Below, piece by piece: positions 1-36,799 of a stretch of DNA of 64,000 nt. The first letter of the stretch is position 1, and each line of letters starts with the position of its first letter. Both the position numbers and the translations under genes were made by a program. The notes under the pieces were generated by a model, which saw nothing but the letters and a program-made list of their open reading frames with translations, was not told the DNA's origin and made no database searches. The stretch is from Euglena gracilis (taxonomy: Eukaryota): positions 28,576,417 through 28,640,416 of the forward strand of contig CP154954.1 of NCBI GenBank assembly GCA_039621445.1, in the 5' to 3' direction.

Positions 1-631
1 TGCCAGTTGGAACACAAAGTCCTGGATTGCACCATGTCGCCGCGTGATGCCATTTGAGCTGCAGCATACAAGGTGATTACCCAGGTTGTCCATTGGCTTG
101 GTGCAGCGTGGGCACGTTGATCCCGTTGGTGGACAAACTGGTGCTCCCAGTGACCACTTTAGAAATCCTTGCGGCCCATGTTTGCGTTGGGGGAGTTCCT
201 TCGAGGATGGAGTTGGCAGAGGACAGGCACTCAGCAGTGTCTTTCGGTACTCCTCGGTCTGCCAGGCCCAGGGTGCGTCTGCCATTGCTGACAAACGTCA
301 CAATGCCGGATATACGTGCTGGGAGACGTTCCCGTGATGGGTCCCGAATTCCGAGTCCGCCATGACGCACGGGTAGGGTGGCCTGAGCCCATTGGTTGTC
401 ATCGATTGGGGATCCAACAATGTTGCTCATTGTGTTCCTGATTTCTTTGGTCAACAGAGCACATGCGTCATTTGCCTGCCCCAGTTCTGTTGCACGCATG
501 AGGTCATTAACTTTGCATGCATCTAGGCAGGTTCGTAAGAGGCAGAACTGAATATGGGCTTGCGGCAGGTTCAAAAGGGCCCGGCAAGTTCTGCACACCT
601 GTTGCACGTTCAGCCCACACTTCCCCCGCAA
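1..631 (-). pseudogene. Post-RT region and CCHC knuckle preceding the RLE (frameshifted, internal deletion near 120)
   Basis: QWAQATLPVRHGGLGIRDP in ORF 77..631; another frame gives CPRC...GNHLVCC...RRHGA. Collinear with the copy at 8700-9500 except for a missing block. Confidence 0.8.
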
Positions 632-2762
632 AGCCTCCGCTTTGTGGATGGCATACCGGGATTCCCAGGGCCCGTATACCAGAATTAGGGGAGTAATTCA
701 CGATTGGGACTGCACGAAGTGGGCTGTTTTGCGGCATTTCAGCACGATTGGCTTTTGTTGCTGCAGGGCCCCACGGGCGGCATTTTTTTGCGTTGAGGTG
801 TATGCCTAGTAGCGTCCCCTGTCGTTGAATTTCTGTAATTGCTGCATGTAATTGTGGGAGGGTTCCCAGCATGTGTCCATCATCCAAATACCACAATTGC
901 AGTGGCACCACGTCTTGCAAGGACTCGACGAGAGATTGCAACGCCAAGGCAAATCCGGCTGGGCCACAAGGGTCCCCTTGTTGTACGCCAGAGGCACTCC
1001 GAAGGTGTGATGACCCACAGAAGAGCGGGCTGTGTTCGGCGTAGCAACTCTCGAACCAAACGTACGCCTCCGGGCAACGTTTAGCCACTTCAGCAAGGAC
1101 TGTCTTTCTTTTTACGCAATTAAAAGCATTGCTGAAATCTACCTGTAACAAAGCCCAGGTGCTGTCTTGTTGCATGTGCAGGTGATTTACTTCTTGCTGC
1201 AGTCCCATAGCAATGAGTTCACATGCCCCCTGGACCCTTACACCGCATTGTAGTGGCTGCAGTTCTTTAAGGCGGTCCCTGATTTTGGGGTGCCTCATCA
1301 AATATTTGCCCACCAATCGGCGCAGGCATTCCCCAGCTGCAATTGGTCGCGTGCCGTCCTTCTTTGGGTCAGGAATGGGGTTGGTATTGCCAAGCTCAAG
1401 GTTTTCGCTTGGATTGCAGGGTTTTCGAAGAGGAGTCAAACGGGCACCAGCGAAAATCCATGCCGCAGAGTTGTGAATTCCGTTTGTCAAACATGTTCGG
1501 ACGAATTGGTCCAAAATTGTGAGGTGTTCTGATTGTGTCCCCAGGGGATCAGAGAGCATGTCTTTAAGATGATCTGGACGAAGTCCAGACGGTCCTGGTG
1601 AGGACTCCTTCGGGAAAGACATGACTGCTTTCCGTATTTCAATTAGGCGCTCCCTGGTTGCATCTTCACTGAGATCGAATTCGAGGCGAGGGAAGTCCGG
1701 AGGCAGATTTTGCCTTCCAGGTTGGGGTTCGGGAGGGTGCAAGGCAGCCAACCGTTCTAAGATTAGCGGTTCATCTGCATCTTGGATTCCATCAGAAGTC
1801 AGCATGCGGCAGGCTTTACTGACCGCCCCATGGCTGACCAGGCTTTGAACACGGTTGCACAATCTTTCTTGGCTTTCTGCATCGAAATTTTTTGTCTGAC
1901 TTCGTGTTCTCTTCTTTGGGTTTTGTGCATCGCGAATTTGGCGAGTCTCATCCCACGAATCTTCTGTGGACCGGTTGAGGTAGGCATTGGCTCTCTCAGT
2001 AATTTTCCGTCCAACTGCAGCCCAATGGCTTTTCCCGCTCCGCTTCAATGGAGCAAGCACAGCTTTTGGGAAGCACCAAAGTGCGTGTAGGGTCTCCCAT
2101 CCTGGCTTTGACACAAAGCGACCGAGGGTGCTGCAGAAGGCGAGCCCAACGTTTCGCAACGCTCCCCGTGGGATATGGACCAACGTGCCCCGAGTGTCTT
2201 GGGAAATTTCTTCCCAAGATGGCTGCATTGGTGGGCAAGGTTGCGAGAAGGGAGTAACTTGCAGCGTATCAGCGTTCGTCGAGGATTGCGCTGGTGCCGG
2301 AGCCACGGGGTGCTGCGGCCTTCGACCATTTTGGCACTCTTGCTCTTGCCCTTGTGGTGAGGACGGCACAAAATTCTCAAGCAACCCCTGGCCCTGCGGC
2401 GCACACCCGTGAATTTCGGAAATCGCTGAGCGCACCCGGGACTCTAGTTCGTCAATGACCATGATTTGTTCAGCTGCAGGTGCCCCGGGGCCCCCGTTCA
2501 AACTAGGAAACGGCATTATAGCCTGGGACAAAGTAGGCGAGAACAGCGGCGTCGAGTGCATTGGAAACCAAGATCCAAGGAGTGGTAGCTCCGTCGGCGG
2601 CACAGCAGAGGTCTGTGCGGCTGAGGCCATTTCAACGTCCTCCTGCTGGGGAGGGGGTTTCTGTGGGACCTGGGTTGCTTTCAATGTCGCCACAACTGGC
2701 AAGGCTTTTGCCCCTGCCACAACGGGGAGGACTGTACCCATACCGCGTTTTTTCTTGGTCAA
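507..2762 (-). CDS. Reverse transcriptase of non-LTR (CRE-clade-like) element; true frame probably enters near 2655 from the upstream 2A-bearing frame
   Basis: SPGPSGLRPDHL, RPIAAGECLRRLVGK, QVDFSNAFN, GVQQGDPCGP, WYLDDG, GIHLNAKKC. Confidence 0.92.
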   Translation of the reverse strand: MTKKKRGMGTVLPVVAGAKALPVVATLKATQVPQKPPPQQEDVEMASAAQTSAVPPTELPLLGSWFPMHSTPLFSPTLSQAIMPFPSLNGGPGAPAAEQIMVIDELESRVRSAISEIHGCAPQGQGLLENFVPSSPQGQEQECQNGRRPQHPVAPAPAQSSTNADTLQVTPFSQPCPPMQPSWEEISQDTRGTLVHIPRGALRNVGLAFCSTLGRFVSKPGWETLHALWCFPKAVLAPLKRSGKSHWAAVGRKITERANAYLNRSTEDSWDETRQIRDAQNPKKRTRSQTKNFDAESQERLCNRVQSLVSHGAVSKACRMLTSDGIQDADEPLILERLAALHPPEPQPGRQNLPPDFPRLEFDLSEDATRERLIEIRKAVMSFPKESSPGPSGLRPDHLKDMLSDPLGTQSEHLTILDQFVRTCLTNGIHNSAAWIFAGARLTPLRKPCNPSENLELGNTNPIPDPKKDGTRPIAAGECLRRLVGKYLMRHPKIRDRLKELQPLQCGVRVQGACELIAMGLQQEVNHLHMQQDSTWALLQVDFSNAFNCVKRKTVLAEVAKRCPEAYVWFESCYAEHSPLFCGSSHLRSASGVQQGDPCGPAGFALALQSLVESLQDVVPLQLWYLDDGHMLGTLPQLHAAITEIQRQGTLLGIHLNAKKCRPWGPAATKANRAEMPQNSPLRAVPIVNYSPNSGIRALGIPVCHPQSGGFAGEVWAERATGVQNLPGPFEPAASPYSVLPLTNLPRCMQS

Positions 2763-4937
2763 TCAGTTGCCGTACGTGGTTGGCGTGCCCTGGGGCCACA
2801 TTTGACAACTTAGAAGGCCCTGGGGCCATAGTGCAAGTTGGTCGTCAGCAATGGGGCCGGGTGCTAGGTCGCAGGGATAGGGGTCCTTCACGTGGGGTTA
2901 TCCGGTGAATAGGTCCTGGCTCAAGCTGAACGTCACCACAAAGTGTGACATCTTGGTGTGTGGGCCTCTCGGCTATGACAGCGTCGTTAGGGCTTATGTC
3001 ACCTTGTTGGTCACCTCGTTGGTCACCTCGTTGGTAGTTTGGTCGTCTTTGTGCTGTCCGTCGTGCCCTCCGGACGTGACGGTCAACTGAAACTACTGAC
3101 CTTGTCGGACGTAACAAGGCCATGATGCCCAGGATATCAACGGTGTGTACATTCAATGGGGAGAGGTCGGACGAGGAGGGCTCCGTTGGAGGTACTCTGG
3201 GGAAAGTGCCTCTCGGCCGGAGAACGTTGGGTAGTGTCATTAGGTGAATAGGGGGCAGGTAGAAGTGAAAGGCCTCGCCGATGTTTCATACTTCGGACGA
3301 TAAACAAGTCAGCAACCACATAATGGCATGCACACTCGATGGGGAGTCGTGACGTGGTGGTCGATGTGGCCATAGCCCTATGAGCACAAACAGAACTCCT
3401 CTCAAAACTTCCCAACATTCGGTGAGCTCATAGACGGTAGTGTCCTCAACCAGGACATCGGAAGGGAAGGCGTCTCGGAAAGTTTGAAGTTCTGCATCCA
3501 CCTCTTGAAGGCTCGCCAACAGTCTGTGCCAAATGAAGTTTTCTTGAAGTCCCCTGGAGACAGGGATTGTCGGTCTTTCCATGGTGGCCAGTCGGAGGTA
3601 GATGGGTCCTGGTTGTGTTTGGACGTCACCATGGGTGGTGATTCGTTCCCCTCTTCCAGTCGGCTGGTGTCTTTCTGAAAACTTTTCCCGGGTTTGTTCT
3701 ACGGTGTATCCTCGGCTTGTTACGGAGTGTACTTTTGCTGTCTCAGTAGATGGAAATACTGTGGCTGAAAAAACAGGGCAGGTTTCCCTGTGGTGCAGGC
3801 ACCAACCTGCCGAGGCAGTGATGGTTTCAATGTCACACAAAGTGCATTTCAGCCAGTATGTAGCTTTGGGAAGAAGTGAACGGGAGGAGCCATCGGGGCC
3901 TTGCCGCAATGGTATTTCGGCCTTGATCCGAAAGAAATCAGTCATGTTCATGGCAACAAGTTGGTCCAATAGATCCATGACTTCACCACAGGGTCCATTA
4001 ACTGCCGTCGGCGGGCCTGGATTGGTTTCCACATCACCCATTGTTGTCAGGGAATCACCTCGCCCCGTCTTCAGATATGCGTCTTCCGGCTTCTTCCCCC
4101 CGTGTGGGCCTGCAGAGCAGAGGTATATGTTGCCGACTGTTTCTGCCATGTGGAAATTTTTTGTGGCAGCACAAGAGTAATAGTCCGACAGGGAGTCATT
4201 TGAGTCTTCAAGATCGCTGGCGGTCCATACAGACGGGGAAAGACGATCAGCCAATCCAACCTCACACGCAAACTGTAACGGTCTGGGCATGTAATCCATC
4301 TGCCAAATTCTTGGGCAGTATCGCCAGGCAATGGGCAGGGTTGGTTCTCGGGAGGGTGTCAGCCTCTTCTGTGTCCTCGGGGGGGGGGGGACTGCTTCTG
4401 CTGCAGGCACCTTTTCTTTGATTTTTTGTGCGATAGCTCGGCGTACTTTTTCTATGTGCGACATGTCCACTCCCTCCTCACGTTGTTCCTCTGGTCGGTA
4501 TTGATGAAGAATCTGGGCGATTCTGATCCGTTCCAGGATGAGGTTCTTTTTTGGTGGGGGGGGGGCGACTGCACAACGTTTGGCGCTGCCAGTGGCAACG
4601 TGAGTTTCATGTCTGTGTGCACCATTTTTTGTGACTGCCGAATGTCCACTGTTCTGCCAATGTCGACCAACTTTTCCTGAATGTTGGCCAGTTTTCTGGC
4701 GACCATCTCGTGAAATAAAATGCCTCCTGCTTGCTGTCTCATGCGCCTTCTCCAAAAAAATTCTTCCCTGATGGACCGAAACTCTGGTTTTTCCCAAACT
4801 GGGACCCCTTCCAGGGAGGTGTTGGGTGGGGAGGCTGGTAAATCTGTTGCCTGGGGGGGGTCTTGCCATTGAAAGGGGCTGGGTTCCTCCTGCAGGATCA
4901 CTGTGCCCAGTTTTGCCCACTGTGTGCCATCAAACAT
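2632..4937 (-). pseudogene. N-terminal part of ORF2 polyprotein with Zn-finger-like motif and four 2A-like motifs
   Basis: ORFs 3286..4920, 2845..3240 and 2632..2829 share one frame, separated by single TGA codons. Likely ATG at 4937 (ccaccATG) with a shift in the G-run near 4560. CTLC..HHRETC motif. Confidence 0.7.
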
Positions 4938-4956: not shown

Positions 4957-6078
4957 TTAAAAATGCGAAATGGTGGGCCTGGCCCCCCCCCTCTTGCAGG
5001 GGGGGCTGATATTGGGGGGCTGGTGCTGAGATCTTTTGGGGTTGCATTTGGCTGGGGTTGACGATCCTCCTCTTTTGGGTGCGGGGGGGGGTTGTTTTGC
5101 AGACTCCTTTTGATTTGGAGTTGCCTTGGGATGAAATTCTTGATCCACTTGTTTTACTGGGTGAAGGTATTGTGTTGAATTGTCCCCTCTTTGGGGGGGA
5201 CTTTGTGAGACAAAAGGGAAAGCTGGGAAAGCTGCAGGCAGAAGAGAACATTGGAAGGCTGATGGTGATGCCAGTACCACATCTGGGATTAAGGGTGCTG
5301 GCAGGCCAGGGGTGTATAATGGTGTTGGGAGGGGGGGGACTTCTGTACTCTGGCCTGTGCTGAGAAAGGCTCTGAGGCTTCTGAAGAGTTCAGCCTCTCT
5401 CCTTCTCTGCTCTTCTTCTCTGATCCAATTCTTCCTCTGGTCATCTTCTCTGCTCCAGTTTGATTGCAGTGGTTGCTGAGATTGCTGGGGTTCACCCCAA
5501 AGGTTGGTCTGTGATGGAATGTACATTTGTATGATTGATGTGACAGATGGACATACTTGATTTCTACCCACTGGTGGGCATTGGAATGGGCTGTTCACTG
5601 GAATGCCCACTGATGGCCCTGACTGTGGAATGCCCACTGATGGGCTTGCTGTACAGGGGGGGCCCAGACTCACTTGCTGATGGAGCTGGGGCTGAGGAGA
5701 ACTCTGTTGAGATATATGATAACTGGGTCGACCTCTCTGCCATGGGGGCTTGTAATCTCTTCCAAACCTTCTCTGTAGGTACTCTTCATGCTCTTCCCTC
5801 TCTTGCCATGTCCTCTTCTTTCTCTGTGAGATGCTGTCTTGACTTTCTCTGTCACTATGTACAGGGCGGTCAGCAGTGAGTCGTTGTGCCACAGCAGTGG
5901 TTAGCACCGGCACCAACAGCGGTAACAACATCTTGGCCAGCAGCTCCAACTGTCCAGTGTCCACTGCAACAGTAGGTGTACTTGAAGGGTTGGTTGTGGT
6001 AGCAGCTTGGTTGACAAGGGGTGTATTGTCTTGAGTCTTGGGGCCTTCTGGAGGGCCATCCGGCCCCTTTGCAGCCAT
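4957..6078 (-). CDS. ORF1 of the non-LTR element, Gln/Pro-rich, function unknown
   Basis: ATG in ccaccATGg context 14 nt after the SL exon; open for about 373 codons. Confidence 0.7.
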   Translation of the reverse strand: MAAKGPDGPPEGPKTQDNTPLVNQAATTTNPSSTPTVAVDTGQLELLAKMLLPLLVPVLTTAVAQRLTADRPVHSDRESQDSISQRKKRTWQEREEHEEYLQRRFGRDYKPPWQRGRPSYHISQQSSPQPQLHQQVSLGPPCTASPSVGIPQSGPSVGIPVNSPFQCPPVGRNQVCPSVTSIIQMYIPSQTNLWGEPQQSQQPLQSNWSREDDQRKNWIREEEQRRREAELFRSLRAFLSTGQSTEVPPLPTPLYTPGLPAPLIPDVVLASPSAFQCSLLPAAFPAFPFVSQSPPQRGDNSTQYLHPVKQVDQEFHPKATPNQKESAKQPPPAPKRGGSSTPAKCNPKRSQHQPPNISPPCKRGGARPTISHF

Positions 6079-6092
6079 GGTGGTTATGCAGA

Positions 6093-6118
6093 CGAAAAAA
6101 AATAGACACTCAGAAAGT
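6093..6118 (-). other. Euglenid spliced-leader exon copy at the element 5' end
   Basis: Reverse complement reads ACTTTCTGAGTGTCTATTTTTTTTCG, matching the 26-nt Euglena SL exon as I recall it. Not followed by a GT intron. Confidence 0.9.
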
Positions 6119-6126
6119 CCTCCCAA

Positions 6127-6817
6127 CTTACCTTACCAACTGTCTAACTGACTTTTCTATTCCTAATTCGAACTTTTCGCCACTGGTCGGTGGATTCGGT
6201 TCGCCCCACCACCGTTCCCCTCTTCCAGACTTCCCCATTCGAACTTTTCACCCCGCAGGGCCCTGCAAGAGATGCGGGAGGGCCTATCGGTGACACTCAT
6301 GCGCCACTTGGCGCGACAGCTGGCAGCCAAGGACCGCGTGGAGGATGCCCTCCAACCATGGTAAGTCCCAGCCTCCACCGCAGACAACACCCAAGCCAAG
6401 CAAAGCCAAGACCAAAGCAACCCGAAGCGCGGAGGTTCACCAGGGAAACACCCCCACCCCCCACCAAAAGGCGGCCACCACAAAAAAAAAACCAGACCAA
6501 AAGAAACAAAAAAAAGACCCCGGTCGCCAAAAAAAAAACGCCTACACGCCAGGCCAAAGGCATCCGCCAAAAGGCGAAGGAGGGGAGTGGAGCCGGCAAA
6601 AGCAGCACACACAAAGGGTAGCCCGCCCGCCCTGGACTCCATAAAGCGAGACAGAGAGAGCACGCGCGACCCCACAAGCCGGCCGCAGACTGCTGGCTCA
6701 TGTGTTATGTCTCCACATTGATTGTGTTTTCGTCTTTGGGACAATTGGGATATCAAGAAAAACAAATTGGGAATCCGAGGATTTCAAGAAAAACAAAAGA
6801 ATATTCTGAGACGTCCA
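6127..6817 (+). repeat. Solo LTR of Gypsy family 3, interrupted by non-LTR insertions
   Basis: 6127-6178 and ~6684-6817 align to LTRs 43250-43454 and 50065-50271; ends gagacgtcCA. Confidence 0.85.
6259..6684 (+). mobile_element. 5'-truncated 3' end of a CRE-like element
   Basis: Encodes ALQEMREGLSVTLMRHLARQLAA..W*, similar to LSLTLAREVARQLAW of the copy at ~9880; ccgcag occurs on both sides. Confidence 0.6.
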
Positions 6818-6819
6818 CC

Positions 6820-8098
6820 TCCTATGTCCAAGTACCCAGAAAATTTTGGAATTGTGGGGGGTGTGTGGTGCTTCGGGATAATGGGAAGGACTATGTCCAA
6901 ATGCATCCCAAGTCACCACCGCACATGGGGCTGTTGTCTGCCGTCATAATTTTGATGGGATTCTTGGCATGAACCAAGAGGGGAGTGGGTATAAGTCCTT
7001 TGCGGAAAAGAAGGGGGATTCGACACCCTGTGTCGACTAAAATTTTGTCTTATGCACAAATATTTTGAGTTTTGATTTTTGCTTGTACCAAAAGTTCCAA
7101 GGGGGGTACGCAAAGCGAAGGGTCGGGTGTAAAATTGTTGTCGCGCGAACTGTTCCATGACCCTTTGCTTACTTTGCTCAACATTCCAAGCCAAAATTTG
7201 GCGCGGGAAGTGGGGGACCCGAAAATTTTCCGGGTACCGACCTGAAAGACCGATGGGCAGGGGGGGGGGCAGGGGTGATCAGTTCCTACCGCCATCTGTT
7301 CATCATCCCATAGGTCTGTGCCCTCAGACCTCGGGCTCACCTACTCCATATCCGAGTCGGCCTTTTGGTCTATGGTGGACTTCCTAGAATTAATTGCGCG
7401 TATCGCGCGAATCTCATTCCTGTCTTTCGTCAGCTCATCGTCGGTGCTCTCATCCCCCTCCCTGCCCGAAGCTAGGTCTTTTTCCTCGAAAGAGGATGCT
7501 TTGAAACCAACCCGCTGCCTATTGGCAGAACCGCGATTGGAATCGCGACGACCATGGCTAGGGCGGGGAGAACGAGAACGGGGGCACTTGGATGAATGGT
7601 GATCTTTAGACCCACAACGGGAACAACGGTTTCGCGATTGCGATGCCTTTTGGCATAATAGCGACGCGGGGAGCGGGAATCTGCTCGACCGCGGTCAGAT
7701 CGCGAAGAGGATGATCCACTTAGCGACCGAGATCGCGAAGAATCGCGATTCGTATCCCGATTGCGGGTAGGGGGGCGGGGGGCTGACCTTGAGGTTTAAA
7801 AACACGTCCGCTATTGCGGTGGGGTGAGCGAGAACGCGGTCTACCATCACCCGATCGGTATCTTGAACGCTGCGAGGGCGCAGATCGCGAAGAACGCGTC
7901 TCCAGGAAGAGAGGAATCCTCGGGGGCCCTTACTGCGCTTTCGGGCTTGGGGATTCGGACAATCCCGAGACATATGTTCCGGTTGATTGCACAAAAAGCA
8001 CACTTTGTCCGAAACTTGGTCCGAAGAGCGCGAATAGCGCGGTTTGGATTCCCGTGTGGAAGATTTGGGGTTTGAGCGCGGATAGCGCGTTTTGGAAT
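6820..8098 (-). pseudogene. Decayed gag-like region with CCHC knuckle and Arg/Ser-rich tail
   Basis: CFLCNQPEHMSRDC at ~7960-8003; nucleotide similarity to 39190-39300 (+). Confidence 0.65.
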
Positions 8099-8560
8099 CA
8101 GTGTCTCACATTGGCAAGAGAGGTGGCCCGCCAGCTGGCCTGAGGAACAGTGGCGGAGCCATCTGGAACGGTGGTTCCCACCACCCATTGCCCATATGAT
8201 ACGGAGTGAGCAATTTGACCACAGGGCCGAAGACTTCATGACCCACCAACCGTACGCATAACCAACCACAAGACTGCTTAAACCAAAAAAAACAAGCAAA
8301 TCACACCTTGCAACGAGTGGACCAAGTCTACAAAGACGTCCAAACCCTTACCGCACTGAAAACAGAGCCTTCCCTGCGCCAACTCCCCAAAACCTAAACT
8401 TGTCGCTGCCACAACCTCAACACCCAACAGTCCCCATGGCCGTTCCATTGAACCTTCCCTGCCGCTGTACACTTTCCTCTCACACTCGCTATCCCCCCTC
8501 CGTACTGTGCCCCTCACCGCCCTTCTACTTCACCCTGGACTCTCCCCCCTCCCACCTTGA
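8099..8560 (+). mobile_element. 5'-truncated CRE-like 3' fragment
   Basis: 8102-8210 closely matches 9882-9990; right boundary approximate. Confidence 0.7.
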
Positions 8561-8689
8561 GAACTTGGTATGTGCATAACTCTCACCCGCACAGGACTTC
8601 GGCTCGGAGTAATCCTCCTAGGCCGCTTGCTGCTATATACAAAGTTGGGAGGAGCGCCTCACCGGTGTCCGAAGGCGTGCCACCTGTTA

Positions 8690-10376
<1,687 letters not shown>

Positions 10377-10991
10377 TGTTGGGGGTCCGGGAGGACCCTG
10401 CTCGCCTGGGGGGGCTGCTTTCGCTGGGGCGACAAATTCCCTTTTCTGGCCCTGGTGGGCTCAGGCCAGGGCCTTTGGCAAGTTGGGCCCCGATTTCAAT
10501 TAAATCCACAGGCGGTAATGGGGGTGAGGTGTGCCCCCTGATGTGGGGTCTCCAGTTGCCCGCGTAGGATCTTTTTTTGCCACCATTGTTGGTTTTTCCC
10601 CATTTTCCAACTTGAACTTTTCAACTGAAAGGCTGAAGCAACAAAGACAAACCAACCCACCTACTTAGGTGAGCAAATCAGCAGCACAAGACAAACCTTG
10701 CTGAGAGGATGGGCAGGTACCTTGTGTTCACCTGCTGTTGGTGGGTAGGGACAAGTTGGAAAGCAATGCCTTGATTTCTTGAAAGAATTGGATTGATCCT
10801 TTTGATTGTTCAATACTTAGGTGACTTTTCTGATTCTGTGATTCTCAAATCGAATTCTCAAATTCTTCCCGGAATTTGCTGGGGTTCGAATTCAACTCGC
10901 GTGGCGGTTGACTTGCTTTGGTTATTCCTACCGGGGGTTTTTGGGAATTTTCTGGGAAATTTTTGGCTGCCGACGCCAGCTGCAGCCGACA
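10377..10991 (-). repeat. 3' LTR of family 2
   Basis: Direct repeat of 27823-28437; adjoining PPT AAGGGAGGGGG (10992-11002, minus). Confidence 0.93.
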
Positions 10992-12532
10992 CCCCCTCCC
11001 TTGCGACGTTAGTCGGACCAGTTTTTCTGCCCCCCCCCAAGCAAAAACGGGGAGAGTGAAATTGAATTTTTTTGTGGGGGGGGGCGAAAATTCTGCGGTT
11101 TTTTTTTGAAACGGGTCCTGTCGCTTTTTTTTTGAAAATCTGTGTTACGAGTCGGACCCCCCCCCCAGCCATATAATATCGGGCACCTTGGGGGACTCTG
11201 AAAAATCAGGTCTACAGCGGAAGCCGCCCCACCCCTTTCCTCCGACAAGCATGGGGAACGGGTCTTTGAACACAAAATCTGAAAAATCTGAGCGAAACCA
11301 ACTCTGGGCACTCTACCCCAAGGCCTAAGTCCCACGCTACCCCCTTGGTGAAAATCCTTTTTGGCAGCTTATGTGAGACTTCATTCGATTTCGACTTTTT
11401 TAAAAAAAATCAGGGACTTTGGCCAACAGTGCCTCAGAAAATCTCTTGTGTGGGGAAAGAAAAAGAGAAACCTAGGCATTCCTTTCCAATTCGGGACAGA
11501 AAGGGTAGGAAAAGGCAAACAGTGAATGGGTGCAATGGTGAGAGGGTAAGACGGTTATATACGGCGGGAATAGTGTACAATGGGTGTGCGGGTTCGTGTG
11601 CGTGTGTGGTTGTGTGTTTTGTGTGTATGCACGCTCGCTTCCTTGTCATGCATTCCAACCGAAAATGACTGGGCCGATCGATTTTTTTTTTGAATGCAAA
11701 GAGAACAGGGCTTCACATTGGCCCTCAGCCACTATATCACAGGGCTTTAGTGCCCACGTGGCTGGTTTTTTTTCTCATTGGCCCACACCAGGGCCTGTGG
11801 ACGGAGGAGGGGTCATCTCCAGTCCAGGGTCCCCCCCCCCCCCGAGTTCGGATGCCTCCAAGCTGTGTTCCATGAAAAAATGCCTTTGACCAATATCCAA
11901 TACTAGAATAGTCCAAACCGAATCAAAAAACTGAGTTTTAAAACTCCAACTCGTTTTGTCGTCCACCACAAAAATTATCAAAATCCCAGGTTTTTTCCAA
12001 CTCTTTGAATAAAAATCCTCCAGCAACAAAAAATCCTCAAAAAATTAAAAATTCTGGGTCCAACCCACAAGTCCAGGGCCTACAAAAGCCCTCAACAAAA
12101 TCCAATCGAGAATTCCAACCTGCCACATCCAACAAACAAAGTCCAATCGAGAGCAACCAACCCAACAAAAGCAACATCCAGCAGCATACCGTTGCATAGA
12201 GGCCAGGCCATTCCAGCCCAACCCTGGGCACAACCAATTCACAGCCGAAACCAACCAATTCGGCTTGCCAATTAAAATTCACTGCCCCCCCCCCCCAAAT
12301 CACACGGGGCAATGGGGGTCAAATGACATGGCAAACTCAAAAATACTGAAAATTCAAATCCAATTTTCTCAGCCAAGGCGATTTTTCGCTGCCCCCCCCC
12401 AGTCACATGGGGCCATGGGGGTCAATCTGGCTTCAGCCTCCAAACAAAAAAATCACAAACCTGGGCCGTAATATCCAAACCGGCTGAAATCTCACACACG
12501 TTAAAGGACGGGCCTTCACAGTGTCGCCCCCC

Positions 12533-14409: not shown

Positions 14410-16389
14410 CTACGGCCCACCGTCAATTTTAAGTTCGGACATTATGTCCATTTTCACTTTTTTCTCACGGCAATATTTCACAAACTCCCCACTGAAACGG
14501 TGAATGAAATTTCCAGCCGGTTCCCAGGTCTCCTCCCAGTCCTCATATCCGACCCACTTGGTCAAAAATTCCCATTTTCCATCTTTTCCTTTCCGGTGCT
14601 TTAGAATTTTTTCCACCTCCCACTTATCAGGTAATGCCTCTTCTTCTTTTTCGGTCCGTTTATAGTAAAAAAGAGGCACCCCCTTACCTTCAACTTGGGG
14701 TTCCCGATACTCCTTCAAAAAACTCCTATGAGCTTTTGTCTCCACCCCAGATTTCATCTCAATTACATAACTCCGTTCCCCTTCTCTACCCTTCACGACC
14801 CCAGGTCCCACCCACCTAGAGTCAAGCTTCTCACCCGACCCTTCGGGTCTCCTATACCAAACCGTCGTCCCCACCTTTAGGGGTTCCATTTCTTTCCTCC
14901 CCTTATTTATCCTTGCCACCTCCTCCTCATGCTTTTTGTTGAGTATCCTAGCCACCCTCCCATCAATGTCTTGCATCCTTCGGAAAAACTCCACCGAATC
15001 CTCACATTCTTTGGGTGGTTGGTAGGGTACCCCTGCCAATGGTCTTTCCCTTCCAGTCACAATTTCATATGGGCTCAATCCGCTTTCCCCTTTTACGTCA
15101 TGAATTCGGTCCAAAACGTGGGGTAAAGCTTCAACCCAATTAATTTTTTCCTCCACATACAATTTTCTCAACACCTCCATTACCTGTTGTCCGGTTCTCT
15201 CAACCCTCCCGTTTGCTTGGTGGTGGTATGCTTGGGAATACGCTTGCCTAATCCCCAAAAGCGCACACATGTTTTTCCACCAAGTGCTTGTGAAATGGCT
15301 CCCTTGGTCACTTGAGATGACCGAGGGAACCCCAAAAGGCCTCCACTGATTTTTCACCATTTCCTTAGCCAACTTGGCACCGGTTAATCCCTTGTCCTTG
15401 CATGCAACCCCCACAATCCAACCCGAATGCCTATCCACACAAAGGGCTAGGGTGTCGTACTCCCCCCCATCGTGTAAAACCCTTGGCATTCGAAACAATT
15501 CGATTGCAACACTTGTCATTAGTGCATGGGGTATGGGTGTTGACTCGATCGGTCCTTTCAAACTCTCCCCCCTCACACTCGCTTGGCATGTGGAACAATT
15601 TTTGCTGCAATTTTGGTTGAGTTGCTTTGCAGCCTTTTCATCAGCCCAAACAAAACGGATTGTCATGTGTTTCCAAACTTTTTCAGGGCCAACGTGCCCC
15701 AAAAACTCGTGATTTTCTTGAATCACCAAGGGTTGGAAACTTTCAGGCACACACAACTTTTCCTCGAAAAACAGTTGACCGTTCAAGACTTTATAGCTTT
15801 TGGGCCAAACTGAACCACCTTTGGTAGCCTCCCATTTTTCTTTCCATGTGGGGCATCGAGAATATGCTTCCCCCCAATCACGCTCCCATACGGGCTTAAT
15901 ATCCTTAGGGGTCGTACTTGGCAGGGCGTCCCCCACTTCCATACGAGTGTCCCCCCTCGAACTTTCAGCCGTCTCCGGGACAGGGGTCGTCTCCCCCCCC
16001 ACTTTCTCATCCCAAAAATGAACTCGTTTCTTTTCTTTCCTGGGCCCTTGTGAGTGGGTGTCCACAGGGGTGTCTTTTCCTCCTGGGTCTACCCCACCCT
16101 CGGTTCCCCTCCTTGTGCACTCTCCTTTTTCCTCCTCAGGTGTTACGTTTTTGCCACTACGGGTTGTCACCCCCCGTATCCAGGCATTACGTAAATTGGG
16201 CTGGTTTTTGATTCTTATCTCCAAACACTGTTTTTCCTCTTCTTTTTCCTCCCGGATAAAATTTTCCATTTCATCCTTGTCTTCGGCTGACCCGTGCTTA
16301 CTTATGTCCCTTAGGGCCTGTGAAGCTGGGTATGCCCACCGACTAAGGATATCGGCTATGGTGTTTTCTTTACCCAGGATATATCCCAC
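14410..16389 (-). CDS. RNase H C-terminus, linker, integrase and chromodomain
   Basis: GKENTIADILSR; HEFLGH..CSTC (HHCC); SSDQGSHF..ANGRVER; WVGP; WEVEKILKHR..EFLTKWVGYEDWEETWEP. Confidence 0.95.
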   Translation of the reverse strand: MGYILGKENTIADILSRWAYPASQALRDISKHGSAEDKDEMENFIREEKEEEKQCLEIRIKNQPNLRNAWIRGVTTRSGKNVTPEEEKGECTRRGTEGGVDPGGKDTPVDTHSQGPRKEKKRVHFWDEKVGGETTPVPETAESSRGDTRMEVGDALPSTTPKDIKPVWERDWGEAYSRCPTWKEKWEATKGGSVWPKSYKVLNGQLFFEEKLCVPESFQPLVIQENHEFLGHVGPEKVWKHMTIRFVWADEKAAKQLNQNCSKNCSTCQASVRGESLKGPIESTPIPHALMTSVAIELFRMPRVLHDGGEYDTLALCVDRHSGWIVGVACKDKGLTGAKLAKEMVKNQWRPFGVPSVISSDQGSHFTSTWWKNMCALLGIRQAYSQAYHHQANGRVERTGQQVMEVLRKLYVEEKINWVEALPHVLDRIHDVKGESGLSPYEIVTGRERPLAGVPYQPPKECEDSVEFFRRMQDIDGRVARILNKKHEEEVARINKGRKEMEPLKVGTTVWYRRPEGSGEKLDSRWVGPGVVKGREGERSYVIEMKSGVETKAHRSFLKEYREPQVEGKGVPLFYYKRTEKEEEALPDKWEVEKILKHRKGKDGKWEFLTKWVGYEDWEETWEPAGNFIHRFSGEFVKYCREKKVKMDIMSELKIDGGP

Positions 16390-18168
16390 CGCAAATCATA
16401 CTTGGAGAAAATTTGGTGCCATCTCGCCCTCCTCCCAACCGGACCACTGGGGGTGTCTAGGACTTCCCTTGTCCAAGACTCCAAACTTTGGTGGTCGGTT
16501 AAAACCAAAACGGGTTGCAATCCAATCCAACTCTCCCATTTTTGTAGTGCCAAAATTATGGCGTACGTCTCCAACTCCCTGGGGGTCCATTTTCTTTGCC
16601 CCTCGGTCAATTTTCGAGACATAAAAGCCACTGGCACAGTTTTTTTTCTCAATCACATCCTGGGCTGTGGGTCTTCCTCCCCCCTCCTTCATTTGCTCTA
16701 ACGTTGCCCCCACGGCGTACCCACTGGCATCAACCCTTAGCACAAAGGGTTTATCTGGGTCTACCCGTTGCAACATTAGGCCCGAACACAACCTTTTTTT
16801 CAGCTCCTCAAAAGCTTTTAAATCCTCCCCATCAAATTCCACAGGTTTTCGACTTCCTTTCTTTCCCACCTCCCTGGGGACTTTCAACTTGTCTTGCAAT
16901 TGGGCAGCTACTTCCGCATACATGTGAATGTATGCATTGTAATAATTTGTGAATCCCAAAAAGGCTCTCAAAGCCGTAATTGTTTTTGGAACCTCCCACT
17001 TTTCGATCGCTCGTAACTTACCCGGTGCAGGCCTCCTAGTCCCGTTTCCTAAAATCTGTCCACAAAATTCGACCTCCTCAACGAAAAGTTTGGCTTTGAA
17101 TTCATCAGCCACCAAAAGTTCTGTTTTCAGCACCTCCAACACCCTCCTCAAATCTTTTTCGTGTGCCCCCACCAGGTCCTCCCCTTCCCCGACCGTTGTC
17201 CCCACCAGTATATCATCTATGTACCCTGTGGCGATATCCCTTACTGGTGTCAAACGGTCGTCGATCATTTGCTGAAATTGCTGGGGGGCATTTGTCAAAC
17301 CCATTACATTCACCCTCCACTGAAAAATGCCTTTGGGGGTGAAACAACACGTTATGGGTCGACTTTCTGGGTGTAAAGGTTGTTGGTGAAAAGCTTGCTT
17401 CAAATCGATGATCGAAAACATTTGGTTTGCACCATGTTTGACCAAAATGTCTTCAATTTTGGGTAGGGGGTAGTTGCATCGCCTTGTTTGGCTGTTTGGG
17501 CCCCTGAGGTCCACCACCCCCCTCCAAGGAAAATCGTTGGATTTTTTTGGAACTGGAAAAGTCTGGGACAGCCATTCTGAATTTTTGGCTGTGGCTGGCT
17601 CAATGTATTTTTTGTCAAGCCAGTCTTGTGTGATTTTTTCAAGTGCCTCTTTCCGCTCACCGTGCATGAAAAAAGGCTTCTGTCTGGATGGTTTTGCCCC
17701 CTCCTTCAGCGGTATGTATGCATAACCATATTGTCCTCTTTCGGGGGGGTCTGGAAATGGCGATGACCGAAATACCGTCCCCCTGTAATCTTGCAAAACT
17801 TGTTCCCTCAACTTAACCACCCGTTCCTCCTCTTTTTTGTCCTCCCCCTCCCTTGCAATTATCATTCGGTTGATAACTTGCACCGGGGGGTCACTTCCCT
17901 CCAAATTTGTGGCAACCTCCCCCAGGTCCTCATCGCTCAAAAATTGAAATTCCTGGTCCAACCCTTCCAAAGGCAAACAAAGACCAAGTTTTTGCAACCC
18001 AAACGAAGACCCGTCCGCCACAGTCACATTGTCCACTGAAAAATTTGTGTCATCCCTGAATTTTTGCGGACCCCACCGTCTTTCAACACCCCGCAAAAAA
18101 ATCAGGTCGGGGCTGTCTTTCACCAACGCCTTGTGGTGTGGAAAAATTCCCAATTTTGCTTCTGCCAA
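16356..18168 (-). CDS. Gypsy reverse transcriptase and RNase H (frameshifts near 16645 and 16390)
   Basis: WRGVVDLRGPN, IDLKQAFHQ, MGLTNAP, YIDDIL, FLGFTNYY, VDASGYAVGATL; RELETYAII..TDHQSL in ORF 16356..16652. Confidence 0.95.
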
Positions 18169-18558
18169 CCATGGATAAGAAAGAATGGCATCAACTTTAA
18201 TGTTTGCCTCATAAAATTAAAATTCGTATTCCACACACTCAATTTCCCTTTCCTCATTCCAGTTTTGTTGAAGGATCATTTTCACCTTTGCACATCTGCT
18301 CCCCCCCGCCAAAGTTTGCCCATTGGCAGTTTCAAACCTTAACGGGTCCTTAGCAGGATACATTAGGTGGTCCCCTATCAACCCTTGTCGAATGAGGTTT
18401 GCCTCCGCCCCCGTGTCAATCAAAATTCTGGCCGTTTTTTCCTCCCCATTTGCCAACTTGATCTGGGTTTTTAACAGCAGTTGTCTGTCCTCCCCAAGTT
18501 TCTTCGATCCTCCCCGAGTTTTCGTCCCCCTCAACATTCTTTTTTTCAGCCGCACCAA
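18169..18558 (-). CDS. Aspartic protease (one in-frame TAA at 18217-18219)
   Basis: ILIDTGAEANLI; DAILSYPW follows the stop in the same frame as RT. Confidence 0.9.
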
Positions 18559-18594
18559 TTTTTTCTTCCCTGGGGTTGCCCCCCCCTGGGAGGG

Positions 18595-20271
18595 TTACCT
18601 TCTATCGATCAACAAGGCCCACACCCCCCAACGGGTACCCCTCAAAATCCTCCCATCAGCCTCAAACAACTTTGTCCCCTTGGGAAAATAAATCTTTTTG
18701 ACAGCCATAGCCACCAGATTTTTCACCCACCTCCTATTCCAGTCTGGGCATATGCAAATCGCCCGACAATTGGAATTTTGCAATTTTTCAGCCACCTCAG
18801 GCCACAAAGTCCAGGGGGGGTTCATCCACAACGTTTCCTCCGCCCCCCAATCCTTTTTCATGGCATCATCATCCTCCCCGTAAAACTTTTCACACCTGGT
18901 ATTTTGGCTGGTTGCAAAACAATCCCGTTCCGCCTTAACCCGAAATTCCTTCTCAATTTCCTCCATACAAACTTTCCTAACAGCATAATCCTCCCTACGA
19001 TATCCGCTTTTTCGTTCCAACACGGTTAACAAATACTCCACCAGTTGTTTGGGCATCCTCCATTTTTTCTGGGTGCCAACTGTCATTCCATATCCTCCCA
19101 ACTTTTCTCGGTGACTCCTCCCTCCAGGAATCAAATTCGGGCAGGTCTGGCCATCACAAAGTTTGCTTTGTAGCTTGCTCAGATTTTCGCTCCCCCAGAT
19201 TCGGGTGGGCTTTTGATATCCCCAATCTGAAAACTGACAATAATCAACATCGACAAAAGTCAGATTTTGAACACAGGGTCTTTTCCGCAAAAGTCCATGA
19301 CGGGGATTTTCAATCCACCACAATTTTGGCTTGAAATATTCGACAATCTCCAAAGTTTTTTTGACCAGCCGATCTGCCCCCTCCAAATTTCTGACTCCCA
19401 ATGTTTTGGCCAAGCTATATTCTGTACAGGGCACCCCCGCAGCGATGATCTGAAAATATCCGGGGGGGTACCTCCAATATCTCCACTCCAAAATATTTGT
19501 ACAGTGGGTTGGGTTAAATCTGGGGTTTATGTCCACTGACACAACCTTAAACCCCTGCTCTCTCAGGCAATCCCCAACCGAGCCTTTACCGCAAAAAAGG
19601 TCTAAAGCTCTTTTCTTTACGGAAGGCTGTGCACGATCCCTTATGGGATCTGATTTTTTACAGATTTGGGCCGAGTCACAGATTTGCACGTCACGCACAC
19701 ACACACCCGACACACTGGACACACCTTGTGCAGAGCTCTCCTGGGATGGCAGATTTTTCATCGTGGTTTCACTCGCACGAGAGTTTTCTTGCCACCTGGG
19801 ATTTGCGTAGGTCAAGTCAAGTGGAGTATACGCGAGAAGGAAACCTACGCAATCGTGCTTATACTCCAGAAATTCCGCAGCTGGGTTTCCTTTCCCCCTT
19901 CCTTTGCCTTTGCCTTTTCCACCGTCCTGGCCCTTTCCCCTAGACCAGTCATTTCCATTGTTTCCTTTCCCCCAAGAATTTTTTCCTTTGCCCTTTCCTT
20001 TGCCTTTGCCTTTGCCACCACCAGACTGTGAATCAAAATTCTGTTGATTTGAGTTCCACCACTGATTTCCCTGAAAATTGGCATTGGCATTGGAATTCCA
20101 CCCAGAATCGTTTCTCCATCCACCCCCATTGCCAAATTGAGATTGCTGGGGGGGTGGCAATGACTGTGATCGAACCACTGGCACTGGATTTTGCACGGGG
20201 GGGTTCACGTTTGCATTGGTCGCAGGAGCTGCCACCTGTGAATCTGATTTTCCAACGGACGGTTTTGCCAC
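18595..20271 (-). CDS. Gag C-terminal GK-rich tail fused to C5-cytosine DNA methyltransferase (~19027-19611) and N6-adenine-type methyltransferase (~18598-18995)
   Basis: C5: ALDLFCGKG (I), VDI (II), GVPC (IV), IENP (VI), QKPTRIW (VIII-like). N6: DCFA..N..DAM..W..WMNPPW..ICPDW. Confidence 0.9.
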   Translation of the reverse strand: MAKPSVGKSDSQVAAPATNANVNPPVQNPVPVVRSQSLPPPQQSQFGNGGGWRNDSGWNSNANANFQGNQWWNSNQQNFDSQSGGGKGKGKGKGKGKNSWGKGNNGNDWSRGKGQDGGKGKGKGRGKGNPAAEFLEYKHDCVGFLLAYTPLDLTYANPRWQENSRASETTMKNLPSQESSAQGVSSVSGVCVRDVQICDSAQICKKSDPIRDRAQPSVKKRALDLFCGKGSVGDCLREQGFKVVSVDINPRFNPTHCTNILEWRYWRYPPGYFQIIAAGVPCTEYSLAKTLGVRNLEGADRLVKKTLEIVEYFKPKLWWIENPRHGLLRKRPCVQNLTFVDVDYCQFSDWGYQKPTRIWGSENLSKLQSKLCDGQTCPNLIPGGRSHREKLGGYGMTVGTQKKWRMPKQLVEYLLTVLERKSGYRREDYAVRKVCMEEIEKEFRVKAERDCFATSQNTRCEKFYGEDDDAMKKDWGAEETLWMNPPWTLWPEVAEKLQNSNCRAICICPDWNRRWVKNLVAMAVKKIYFPKGTKLFEADGRILRGTRWGVWALLIDRR

Positions 20272-23200
20272 CGTTTCGACCCCTTGGCTGACCGTGTTGG
20301 GGAGGGTGTCCTGGACCCCTTGGCCCGATCTGCCTTAGCAGACCTGGCCCTCCGGTTTCCAAATGCATTTGGCTCCCTGGAACTGTGTATCATGTCTTGA
20401 GAATCCCTGGAAGACAATTTTCGCTCAACAAAACGGAAAATTTCTTCAACTCCCATTTTTGGCTGTTCCTCCACAATTTTGATCCTTTTATCCGTGCCTG
20501 TGATTGGTTTCCCACTGACCTCTTTCAGTTTGTCGCAAATCGTAGTGTTGGGCAAAAAGACTTCGAACTCCAGCGGTGAAACTTTCGAAACCTTGCAGGG
20601 CTTTTCCCCAGTGACACGTTCCACAGCACAAATAATGTTTTCCTCGGTTGCAGGCACTCCAGGGTACATTTTGACTTTCGGTCCACATGTTGATTTCCTT
20701 TCCTCCTCATCGGCGACCCAATGCAAAATGAAATTTGGCAGTTTTCCCTTGACCAGTCTTTCTGCCTCATCGTCAGTGGCGCTTTTCACCTGTCTCCAGG
20801 CTATTCTGAAATTTATGACAAAATCTCGCCATTCCTGTACGGTAATTTTCCCTTGGTTCACGAGGTTCACATCATACCATTTTTTTCTGGCACACTCGGA
20901 TTGAGTTCCAGCATATTTCCCCTCAAGCCTGTCAAATTCCTCCTCGAAAGATGTTTTTCCGTTCAATTCCAGTCGGAATTGCAATTCCTTTTTATTTGTG
21001 TCGTCCAGCGTCATTGCAAAAAGCTGAAGCTTGAGTGAATCAGACATATGTCCATTTTGCAAAATAACCAACGTCCTGAAATATTGATCCCAATCCCGCA
21101 CAAAGGACGACCAGTCTTTTGGCTGTCCAGAAAAATTTGGAGCTACCAGGTTTTTCATCAATTGATGCGTTGCCACTGCATTTGATGAAACCAGCCCTGC
21201 ACCTGCAGGCACTGCCCCCACAGGTCGTGCACAAACCTGCCTGACATGTGTCGCATGTGATCCTGGTTCAGCGTATTCATAACCCTCAATTTTAACCGGA
21301 TTTTTCTCAATCGCAGGTAAATCGTTGTAACCAAAAAGATCAAACTCCTCGATTTCTGAATTTCCAGCTGATTTTTCTCCCGTTTCCTTTGTCAGATCCA
21401 CCGTCGCAGATTTGGCAGATTCAGCTTGCTGATTTTTCATCACCAAAAACTCAGCGTGAAATAAATCCAGCTTTTGTTGCAATTTTTTCCGCTCCTGCTG
21501 TTCTTTTCGAAGTTCAACGCACTGCTGTTGCAGTAAAACTCCAACCTGCTGTTTCATCGAGTTTTCCATTTCAGCCCGAACTTTTTCAAACTGCCCCTCC
21601 CTTTCACTCAGCCTCAACCTTTCCTGCAACATTTCACTGATAATGACCTCCAAATTCTTTCTCGTTTGCAGCCCCAACTCCCTTTGCACCTCCAACCGAA
21701 TTGTTTCCTCACTCTTGTTAATCAGGTCACAGACTTTCTCAATGGGAAAATCTTTCCGACCCAGAAAATTCTCCAACCTCCCCAAACGATCATTCAGAGC
21801 TTTGCTCTCTCGCTCCAGGGACTGTGAAAATTCCTTCAATTTCTCAGCCTGTGCCTGAAAATTGGCACACTCAGTCTCCCCCAAACCTTTGCATTGCTGA
21901 AAAATGATCCCAAAACGTCCCTCCAGATCAGAGCTTAGCTCACCAACTGCAGATTTGACCTGATTAACAGCAATTTCCTGCTGTTTTTCCTTCTCCCCCA
22001 CTTGTTGCACCACCATGTGCATCTCCCCCACAGATTTTTCCAAAAACGACAGCTTCTGAGAAAAATCCCTCTCATTTTTTCTCAACCCCTCAACCTGGGC
22101 CTCAAAAAACGTGTTTACTCCATCCTCCACTTTCTTCACTTTTTCAGCAAACTGCCGTTCCATTTCCACACTCAACAAATGCCTTTGGCATTGGGCCAGA
22201 TTTTGCACCATTTCACCATTTTTCTGAAACTGCAAAAGCAAGTCGTTTACGGTTGAACTCAGTTCAGCCTGAATTTCACGTTTCACCATGGCAATGTGAT
22301 CAGCCACTCGCTGATCATGCATGCCCAATGCCTCATTGACCAGATTCAATGCCTGCCCATTTGACATGGCCAATGCCTGATTTAGCCTGTTTTCTGCCTC
22401 ACCCACCAGAATTTCAGCCATTTTTTCAGGATTTTTTCCTTCCTGCACCAAAAGCCTGCCATGTAAACATTCAATTTTACAACTGATTTCTTCACCCCAA
22501 TTGTTCCAATCATCATCAGATTGGCCATAGCCCGATTCCATTTCCACATCATGCTGATTTTCAGGGTTTTCGGACCCAGTTTCTGCAGAAAAACTAGTAT
22601 TTGGCTGTAAATTTTGTGGCTGGGTCTGTGAAAAATCTGGCTGAATTGGTCGAAAAACCTGGGCTGGGCCTGTGTTTGAAGACATTGTTAACGTTGGCTG
22701 AAAAACCTGCCCACTCATCTGGGATGGCCCCATGATTGCTGGAACAGATGACCCAGCCGAAAACTGCTGGGCTGGCTGAAAAACCTGTGAAGTCATCTGG
22801 GCTGGCCCCATGATTGCTGAAACAGATGACCCAGCCGAAAACTGCTGGGCTGGCTGAAAAACCTGTGAAGTCATCTGGGCTGGCCCCATGATTGCTGAAA
22901 CAGATGACTCAGCCGAAAACTGCTGAGCTGGCTGAAAAACCTGCAGCTGGGCTGCAGCTGGCTGTGCTGACTGCGTTTCTGAACTCTGTGTTAACAGCAA
23001 TGGTTCTGGCTGGGCTGTTAAACACAAAATTTTTTGTTCTGGCCCTGGGCTGCTGTCTCGTGACGACACAGAAATTCGCTGAAAACCTGAAAAATTTACT
23101 GGCCACATGCCAGCAGCTTTCATCCTTTGCATAACCATTTGCTGAATAATTGCGTTTTCAGCCTGTTTTTCTTCCTCTGTTTCGCTTTCATAAGCTGGGG

Positions 23201-23774: not shown

Positions 23775-23824
23775 TAACGTTCACCGAATCTGAAAAAACC
23801 TCACTGACGAAGTCAGTGAGCCGA

Positions 23825-26740: not shown

Positions 26741-27823
26741 TCACCACCACCACTGATGCAGTGGATACCAGCCCCAGCTGTTCCAGGGATTTAAATGCCA
26801 GTCCCAACCCCACCAATCTTGAAACCAACGTGGTCTCAAAAACTGAAAGTCGTTCCAACTGCTTTTGGCTGGCCTCCAGAATTTTTTTGTCTGTCTGAAT
26901 TTCCTTGGCTGCGTGGCAAAATCTGAGGAAGATTTTTCAGAAGACACTGATGACGGCTGTAGATTTGTGACATGTCCAGAATTCAGGTTCACGGACACAA
27001 AATTTTCTGGACTTGGTGGTTTTATTTCACTGGGCTGTAACTTGTCAGCGATTCGTAGTTCAAACGTTTTCAGCCGTTCCTCCAGAACCTTTTCTTCACT
27101 CTCCAGCCGTTTTGACAGAGCCTCGCCCTTCTCACACAGGGACTGGATGCTTTCAGAAAAACGGTGTTCAATTTCACTGCAAGTTCGTGTCAAAAAGTCA
27201 TGAAAACCATCTGCCAAATTTCTCAGACGGGTTTCAATTTCAGCCATCCGTCCCTCCAAGTGGCTGGACTCACTTTGGCTGGGCACTTCCTCCAGTTTCG
27301 TCAGCCTCTCGTTCAGAGAGAAAGTGTTTGAAAACATTTCTGTGATACCTGCCTCAACTTTTTGCCACCACTCATCCCAAGAGTAATTAAAAGTTTCAGG
27401 TTTTGTGACCTCTGAAGTTTCCACACTGTCTGATTTGACACTCAGCTGTCCGGATTCAGATTCACACCGCACAACTCTCATTTGCAAAACATTTGGACAA
27501 GGGCCAAAACTTTCTTGTTTAACTTCAGGTTCTCCTGGCAGTGAGCTTGTTGGGCTTACCCCTGACGGTTTACAAGATTGACATGGAGAAGGTGAGTCAG
27601 GGCCATGAGAATGTCCAATGGCTGCTTCACATCTGAGTTTCCAAAACTACCTCTGAGACGCCAGAAGTCCAGCCTCCCTTTTTCTTTGTTCCTCTGTTTG
27701 GGTATCACTGAATTCAATTCCCAACAATTTGAATTGGTCACAGTATTCTTTGATTTCTTTTTCATCAACGGAATCTAAAAATTCTTCACTGACAGAGTCA
27801 GTGAAGCCACCTCTGCGTACCAT
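26741..27823 (-). pseudogene. Gag N-terminal/coiled-coil remnant of family 2
   Basis: Starts MVRRGGFTDSVSEEFLDSVD, similar to Gypsy-1 MVSRGRLTDFVSEVFSDSVN; heptad-rich ORF 26741..27487. Confidence 0.6.
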
Positions 27824-28437: not shown

Positions 28438-28486
28438 CACTGTTCGAAAAATGCCAGAAGGGAGCAAGATGGAGCACAAAAAAAAA

Positions 28487-36770: not shown

Positions 36771-36799
36771 GGAGACGAAGATCGCTGGTTCTGATGCGA

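Follow-up and report, generated by a model that had tools for sequence, protein, structure and literature searches.

The question raised by this locus is how a complete spliced leader (SL) exon came to head a retroelement at a place in the Euglena gracilis genome which is not an SL RNA gene. The element lies on the minus strand of the window (by which we mean the whole 64-kb stretch of DNA that was analysed), and extends from 6118 to the left window edge. At 6093-6118(-) its sequence, which in the sense of the element reads ACTTTCTGAGTGTCTATTTTTTTTCG (6118-6093), matches the published Euglena gracilis SL at 26 of 26 positions, and the features at this 5' end are the following:

6127-6817, plus strand: copy of an unrelated 209-bp TG...CA LTR without its first 21 nt, split by a 501-bp insertion at 6182-6682 (self-BLAST)
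6119-6126, no strand assigned: spacer of 8 bases, on the plus strand CCTCCCAA (sequence, alignment)
6093-6118, minus strand: complete SL exon of 26 nt, the 5' end of the element (exact match; PMC6242988)
6079-6092, minus strand: 14-nt 5' UTR TCTGCATAACCACC, containing neither GT nor AG (sequence read)
6076-6078, minus strand: ATG of ORF1 (sequence read)

Read in the minus sense, LTR-derived sequence continues to 6127 and is followed by the eight bases 6126-6119, the SL, the 14 nt and the ATG at 6078-6076. An earlier sequence-only reading of this DNA had described a 26-nt SL followed by 14 nt and the ORF1 ATG, without an SL intron and within 6076-6126; the order is confirmed by the sequence and belongs to the minus strand (that reading gave no strand), and the interval proved exact. 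It had also proposed a comparison of the 26-mer with euglenid leaders, and this identified the exact E. gracilis SL, the 26-mer being letter-identical to the SL printed in PMC6242988 and contained in the SL primer of PMC5654406. In the 64-kb window this is the sole match at up to three mismatches, with no further SL copies or relics at that threshold, and none of 100 dinucleotide shuffles contained any match. Shorter SL sub-motifs, searched at mismatches set per motif, again matched only 6093-6118 in the window. A scan of the window with a 13-mer of the SL at two mismatches gave eight sites versus 3.7 expected, two of the eight having been inspected. One of these two, the sequence ACTTTCTTTTTTTTCG in a T-rich stretch at 25782-25797(-), resembles an SL minus its middle nine bases, and could be a relic or a chance match.

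The bases directly 3' of the SL are TC and not GT, the canonical dinucleotide with which the intron of the Euglena SL RNA begins (PMC10679874), and the SL intron is absent. Euglena SL genes are mostly found in approximately 300 tandem SL-5S units of 0.6 kb, with some dispersed (PMC2784804). A search of the 64-kb window with Rfam at gathering thresholds gave zero families, hence no 5S rRNA, and of this result only the absence of 5S is informative, as Rfam possibly holds no model of the Euglena SL RNA. Since neither 5S rRNA nor any other RNA family is present in the window, the copy is located outside the SL-5S array. The locus has neither the GT intron after the exon nor the 5S linkage of a functional Euglena SL RNA gene, with TC after the SL and no Rfam family, and it does have what marks an SL-tagged retrocopy, namely a complete intron-less SL exon at the exact 5' end.

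Upstream of the SL, the sequence-only reading had seen a few bases and then an unrelated LTR, and had placed the insertion outside the SL array. Both points hold: there are eight bases and then a 209-bp LTR of the type which bounds a 7-kb element, and this LTR flank and the lack of Rfam families in the window agree with an insertion outside the array. The flanking LTR was aligned to the LTRs at 43250-43456, 50065-50273 and 36562-36770, and the spacer was rejected as a part of the LTR, as it agrees with the aligned LTR sequence at only 3 of 8 positions. The first five bases of the spacer, CCTCC (6119-6123), equal 6818-6822, just past the other end of the LTR; this could be the target duplication of the solo LTR itself or a chance match, and if it is the duplication, the SL would abut the target site of the LTR. 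The 12-mer AAGTTGGGAGGA, which runs from the edge of the LTR across the spacer to the first base of the SL, is present in exact form at 6118-6129(-), 8642-8653(+) and 19093-19104(-), and at one mismatch it has four sites versus 0.96 expected, a number reached by 4 of 100 shuffles. A scan of 5900-7000 for bacterial promoters and terminators was set aside as meaningless for a eukaryote.

With regard to the element itself, the coding parts which can be recognised downstream of the SL, and a related fragment elsewhere in the window, are the following:

4957-6078, minus strand: ORF1, 373 aa, a P/Q/S-rich orphan protein, TAA at 4957-4959 (ORF translation)
3286-4869, minus strand: first part of ORF2, in the frame of ORF1, first ATG at 4869, ending at an in-frame TGA at 3286-3288 (translation)
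4012-4035, minus strand: 2A-like DVETNPGP, canonical (regex over translation)
3604-3627, minus strand: 2A-like DVQTQPGP, degenerate (regex over translation)
2911-2934, minus strand: 2A-like DVQLEPGP, degenerate (regex over translation)
2665-2688, minus strand: 2A-like DIESNPGP, canonical (regex over translation)
507-2762, minus strand: reverse transcriptase (RT) frame of ORF2, Pfam RVT_1 at E 3.3e-13, 44-51% identity to relatives (Pfam, protein search)
1-616, minus strand: post-RT region in two further frames, 616-143 and then 165-1 (tblastn of P0082, P0081, P0001)
8561-10030, plus strand: 5'-truncated fragment of a related LINE, approximately 52% aa identity (tblastx, sequence, ORF translations)

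ORF1 is closed by two stops, the second lying nine codons past its TAA. It contains zero Pfam families, it gave one weak partial match (E 1.6e-6, aa 210-261 only) among 1.84 billion representative proteins, and an Atlas protein search with it returned no usable match. The first part of ORF2 contains a module consisting of a 2A, a zinc-finger-like sequence and another 2A, and the frame is continuous from 4929 through this module. In the stop-to-stop frame 3286-4929, residues 288-452 align with residues 190-339 of the relative P0081 (32.5% identity, E 1.5e-11) and the 2A stretch matches P0011, and the first approximately 290 residues of ORF2 have no counterpart among the LINE relatives, with similarity beginning at the first 2A. 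When D(V/I)ExNPGP in frame within the predicted polyprotein is taken as the form of a 2A peptide, two of the four motifs are canonical and two are degenerate; DIESNPGP is located downstream of a second in-frame TGA (2845-2847), just before the frameshift into the RT frame. The tblastn homology of the RT frame spans 2318-588, the post-RT region lacks approximately 66 residues relative to P0082 near 150-165, and the window edge truncates the element before the CCHC finger and the RLE domain. The copy carries at least five disabling lesions (TGA 3286, TGA 2845, frameshifts just after 2665 and near 600, and the gap of approximately 66 residues). GC and GC3 stay level from ORF1 over the N-terminus of ORF2 and the 2A module to the RT (GC3 0.47-0.49), which may weakly support ORF1, ORF2 and RT as a single unit.

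Judged by its sequence, the element is a non-LTR retrotransposon (LINE) of the R2 group, with the architecture RT, CCHC and C-terminal RLE, and it is assigned to this group because a CCHC finger and a PD..D nuclease are present in its relatives, the profile of which matches R2 proteins. The RT region has 79 relatives at E <= 1e-3, with identities of up to 51%; nearly all of these are unnamed, and in both protein searches (79 and 46 matches) scoring was limited to the 8000 candidates with the most words in common. Those relatives of the RT region that bear names come from dinoflagellates or, as EukProt 'Em' entries, presumably from a sponge, and one relative bears the database name '132 kDa protein', presumably the Swiss-Prot name of SLACS ORF2. 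Neither CRE or NeSL names nor trypanosomatid CRE proteins are among the 79 and 46 matches listed. Full-length relatives (P0001, P0002, P0081-P0083) have 2A motifs before the RT, and a CCHC finger and PD..D nuclease after it. A profile of 16 relatives matched the solved structures of R2 proteins (9nl3_A at E 8e-29, 9dou_A at E 1e-28) from the RT through the endonuclease, with L1 ORF2p scoring lower in the same search (E 2e-7), and the RT frame of the window alone had zero matches to solved structures. Both RVT_1 and this profile indicate the LINE-type RT of the R2 group, and RVT_1 is the only Pfam family in six ORFs of the element and the fragment, with no N-terminal apurinic/apyrimidinic endonuclease (APE) found there. 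As to the single ORF of the R2 group, the decayed copy shows an ORF1 closed by two stops before ORF2, in the same frame.

The related fragment at 8561-10030(+) carries a CCHC finger and a PD..D restriction-like endonuclease (RLE) at 9311-9796, and its end is an A-run adjoining (CA)n at approximately 10040-10150, and not an SL gene. Another piece of this related LINE family, very short and 3'-terminal, was also seen (8103-8213 and 9881-9991(+), 87% identity), as is expected of heavy 5' truncation. Among the relatives, P0006, P0011 and P0081-P0083 have several 2A-like peptides upstream of the RT, like the window LINE (2665-4035(-)), and they differ from each other upstream of the first 2A, where P0082 and P0083 have a precomputed Pfam PF15247 and P0082 also has a Dam domain, PF05869, between 2A sites.

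A scan of a prokaryotic genome collection with the 26-mer gave a single locus, on the 988-bp contig JALQXU010000217.1 (L001). This has an exact, intron-less SL at 791-816 with a G before it and an ATG 68 nt downstream, and has only the G and the SL (27 nt) in common with the window, the downstream sequence being different. The contig is filed under a Pontimonas MAG, degenerate TAGGGG-like repeats precede its SL, and an ORF starts after it; a tRNA scan gave zero genes, and Rfam at E 0.01 zero families. The contig is probably of euglenid origin and was assigned to a bacterial genome by mis-binning, and it would fit leaders on different RNAs being written into DNA, but it is short.

We consider it probable, if by a good way not certain, that the locus is an old broken copy of an R2-group LINE of which the template RNA was trans-spliced with the host SL and reverse-transcribed to its 5' end. 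A source copy would have been transcribed, probably within a longer read-through transcript, and trans-splicing would have joined the 26-nt SL to an acceptor located 14 nt before the start of ORF1, yielding a capped RNA with a defined 5' end; in E. gracilis, the share of mRNAs that are trans-spliced is estimated at more than 70% (PMC10679874). The AG acceptor of the source copy would sit directly before TCTGCATAACC. The proteins would then have been translated, with ORF2 as a polyprotein cut at the 2A sites, target-primed reverse transcription would have proceeded to the very 5' end of the RNA and so written the SL into DNA, and the new copy would have been inserted outside the SL-5S array, in or beside the solo LTR. 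We infer all five steps; what is directly visible is the SL-UTR-ATG anatomy, the absence of the intron, the flank which is not an SL gene and the family of the element. As there is no AG between SL and ATG, the new copy would have lost its acceptor and could not have been re-spliced at the same place, and the SL-headed copy has since decayed.

Several features of the sequence support this reading. The SL is exact and complete and ends at the last exon base, which is the boundary predicted by trans-splicing; it is flanked by 8 nt and an unrelated LTR without any Rfam family, whereas SL genes are mostly in SL-5S repeats; and the SL of L001 is joined to a different sequence, as is expected for SL tags on different mRNAs. 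The 14-nt leader after the SL would also be short for a natural 5' UTR of a LINE. Counting against it are the observation of a single copy of the element and the 988-bp length of L001, as well as the inclusion in the R2 group of clades which target SL genes and the relative named '132 kDa protein'. One decayed copy and one short foreign contig make this a lead rather than a result.

The main rival to trans-splicing of the element's own RNA starts from those SL-gene-targeting clades. The family would, like CRE/SLACS/CZAR and NeSL, target SL RNA genes, and a parent copy at the exon-intron boundary of an SL gene could have given an RNA which ran from the gene start and included the exon (5' transduction); this RNA could then have been inserted off-target at the present site. 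We regard this as unlikely. Of the earlier inference from the letters, it leaves standing that an intron-less SL exon heads a retroelement outside the SL array, and takes away the certainty that the element's own RNA was trans-spliced, as an SL-gene parent gives the same 5' end. The element belongs to the R2 group by the profile of its 16 relatives (9nl3_A, 9dou_A) and by the CCHC and PD..D of the relatives and of the in-window fragment, and within this group CRE and NeSL insert into SL exons (PMC3636483, PMC12278014), R2 itself is co-transcribed with its target (PMC3636483), and some of the Euglena SL genes are dispersed (PMC2784804), all of which suits such a parent. It would however have to be inserted exactly at exon base 26/27, the window copy is not in an SL gene, the related fragment 8561-10030 ends at (CA)n and not at an SL gene, and the SL of L001 is joined to a different sequence; the lack of trypanosomatid CRE proteins among the matches listed also points away from it, weakly so with only the 8000 top word-sharing candidates scored.

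The absence of LINE counterparts for ORF1 and the ORF2 N-terminus raises another matter, as the SL-bearing 5' part could then stem from another RNA. The RT may have switched from the end of, or a break in, the LINE RNA to a trans-spliced host mRNA, in which case the SL, together with the 14 nt, ORF1 and maybe the N-terminal part of ORF2, would be of host origin and would tell nothing about splicing of the RNA of the element itself; we think this improbable. That ORF1 and the first approximately 290 residues of ORF2 (the 5' 2 kb) match no LINE relative, with similarity from the first 2A only, counts in favour of such a chimera, and the region before the first 2A varies among the relatives (PF15247 in P0082/P0083, PF05869 in P0082). 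Set against this, ORF1 matches no conserved host protein (the one weak partial match in 1.84 billion representatives), no break is seen in the ORF2 frame between 4929 and the end of the 2A module, the parts are alike in composition, and a layout of ORF1 plus ORF2 is ordinary for LINEs. There is finally a very slight chance that the junction of SL and genomic sequence is an artefact, either of misassembly or of cDNA contamination of the library. Nothing specific favours this beyond the location in a nest of repeats, where assemblies are least reliable, and the stops, frameshifts and deletion indicate an old genomic copy and not fresh cDNA; misassembly is unlikely because the copy is decayed, and the independent contig L001 also has a genomic intron-less SL.

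Returning to the trans-spliced template RNA which we favour, it has parallels in other systems. A DinoSL encoded in the DNA at the 5' end of retro-copied transcripts is a mark of retroposition in dinoflagellates, and DNA-encoded leaders are established as such marks for dinoflagellate retrogenes (PMC6050394). The window copy is like these in that a trans-spliced leader is DNA-encoded at the 5' end of a retrocopy, and differs in being a retrotransposon of a euglenid with one complete leader, where the DinoSL cases concern host genes with relict leaders which are often repeated or truncated, and re-spliced. As the Euglena SL ends in CG and no AG precedes the ATG, re-splicing at the same site would not be expected here, unlike with DinoSL. 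In parasitic flatworms, 597 SL-like loci with partial leaders have been reported within LTR and LINE elements, as a by-product which was set aside in a search for SL genes (PMC12582326, 2025); the same explanation by trans-spliced RNA was offered there, and the SL-tag idea has thus already been proposed for flatworm transposons (PMC12582326). Where those leaders are partial, the one in the window is complete and stands exactly at the 5' end of an R2-group element of Euglena which has been characterised.

Within the R2 group, the CRE and NeSL clades are specific for SL genes (PMC3636483). The window element is like the CRE clade (SLACS, CZAR, CRE1/2) and NeSL in the order of RT and then RLE, in having an SL-using host and in the physical link of element and SL. 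In contrast, CRE and NeSL are located within SL RNA genes, where they disrupt the exon; in the window copy the exon is complete, the intron is missing, and the flank is an LTR and not an SL gene, with no 5S in 64 kb. The resemblance to animal R2 lies in the profile of the relatives, which matches solved R2 proteins from RT to endonuclease. The target of R2 is 28S rDNA, and self-cleavage, a ribozyme step, defines the 5' end of R2; in the Euglena element trans-splicing would define this end and cap it. With regard to the 2A peptides, these are described for APE-type LINEs, and L1Tc/ingi of trypanosomes are euglenozoan LINEs with 2A peptides. The window LINE shares the 2A peptides with L1Tc/ingi, and would differ from L1Tc in that the latter is APE-type, with an internal promoter (Pr77) and unspliced transcripts (PMC1874656). 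R2 has no promoter of its own, and relies on co-transcription and 5' processing (PMC3636483).

More tentatively, and with considerable doubt on our part, SL trans-splicing might be the regular route to a capped 5' end for a promoter-less R2-group LINE family of Euglena, with mature trans-spliced RNAs as the usual templates in euglenids. If true, trans-splicing would take the place of the ribozyme cleavage or the internal promoter of other LINEs, and the DNA-encoded SL would be a genome-wide tag of retroposition, of transposons as well as host genes, as DinoSL is in dinoflagellates. Should the favoured reading of the locus hold, Euglena transposon RNAs would enter host trans-splicing, the reverse transcriptase would copy capped mRNAs to their very end, and an intron-less SL in DNA could serve as a marker with which retroposition can be counted and dated, and source copies separated from those dead on arrival. 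The matter is also relevant to the expression of promoter-less R2-group elements at sites other than rDNA and SL genes. No description of an SL-headed LINE in Euglena was found in the open-access literature searched.

The sequence-only reading had also taken its leader as pointing to a euglenid host, and this fits both the exact SL match and a Ty3-like element in the window with Dam, DNMT and chromo domains. This retroelement, at 14410-23780(-), has ORFs with integrase, chromodomain and RT/RNase H, and one of its ORFs matches a Dam-type adenine methyltransferase and a C5 cytosine methyltransferase together, an architecture described as 'EpiLTR' in E. gracilis in a 2026 preprint. Other repeats of the window were seen as well. 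The 209-bp LTR bounds an apparently intact 7-kb LTR retrotransposon at 43250-50273(+), with the duplication AAAAC and an aspartic protease ORF, and a second copy of this 7-kb element, inverted and rearranged, is present at 28487-36771(-), interrupted by tandem repeats at approximately 31300-33000. The 501-bp insertion in the LTR next to the SL starts with CCACTGGTCGGTGGAYTCGG, a terminus shared with another repeat at 10342, and the body of the repeat 10340-10992 recurs at 27823-28438 with 97% identity.
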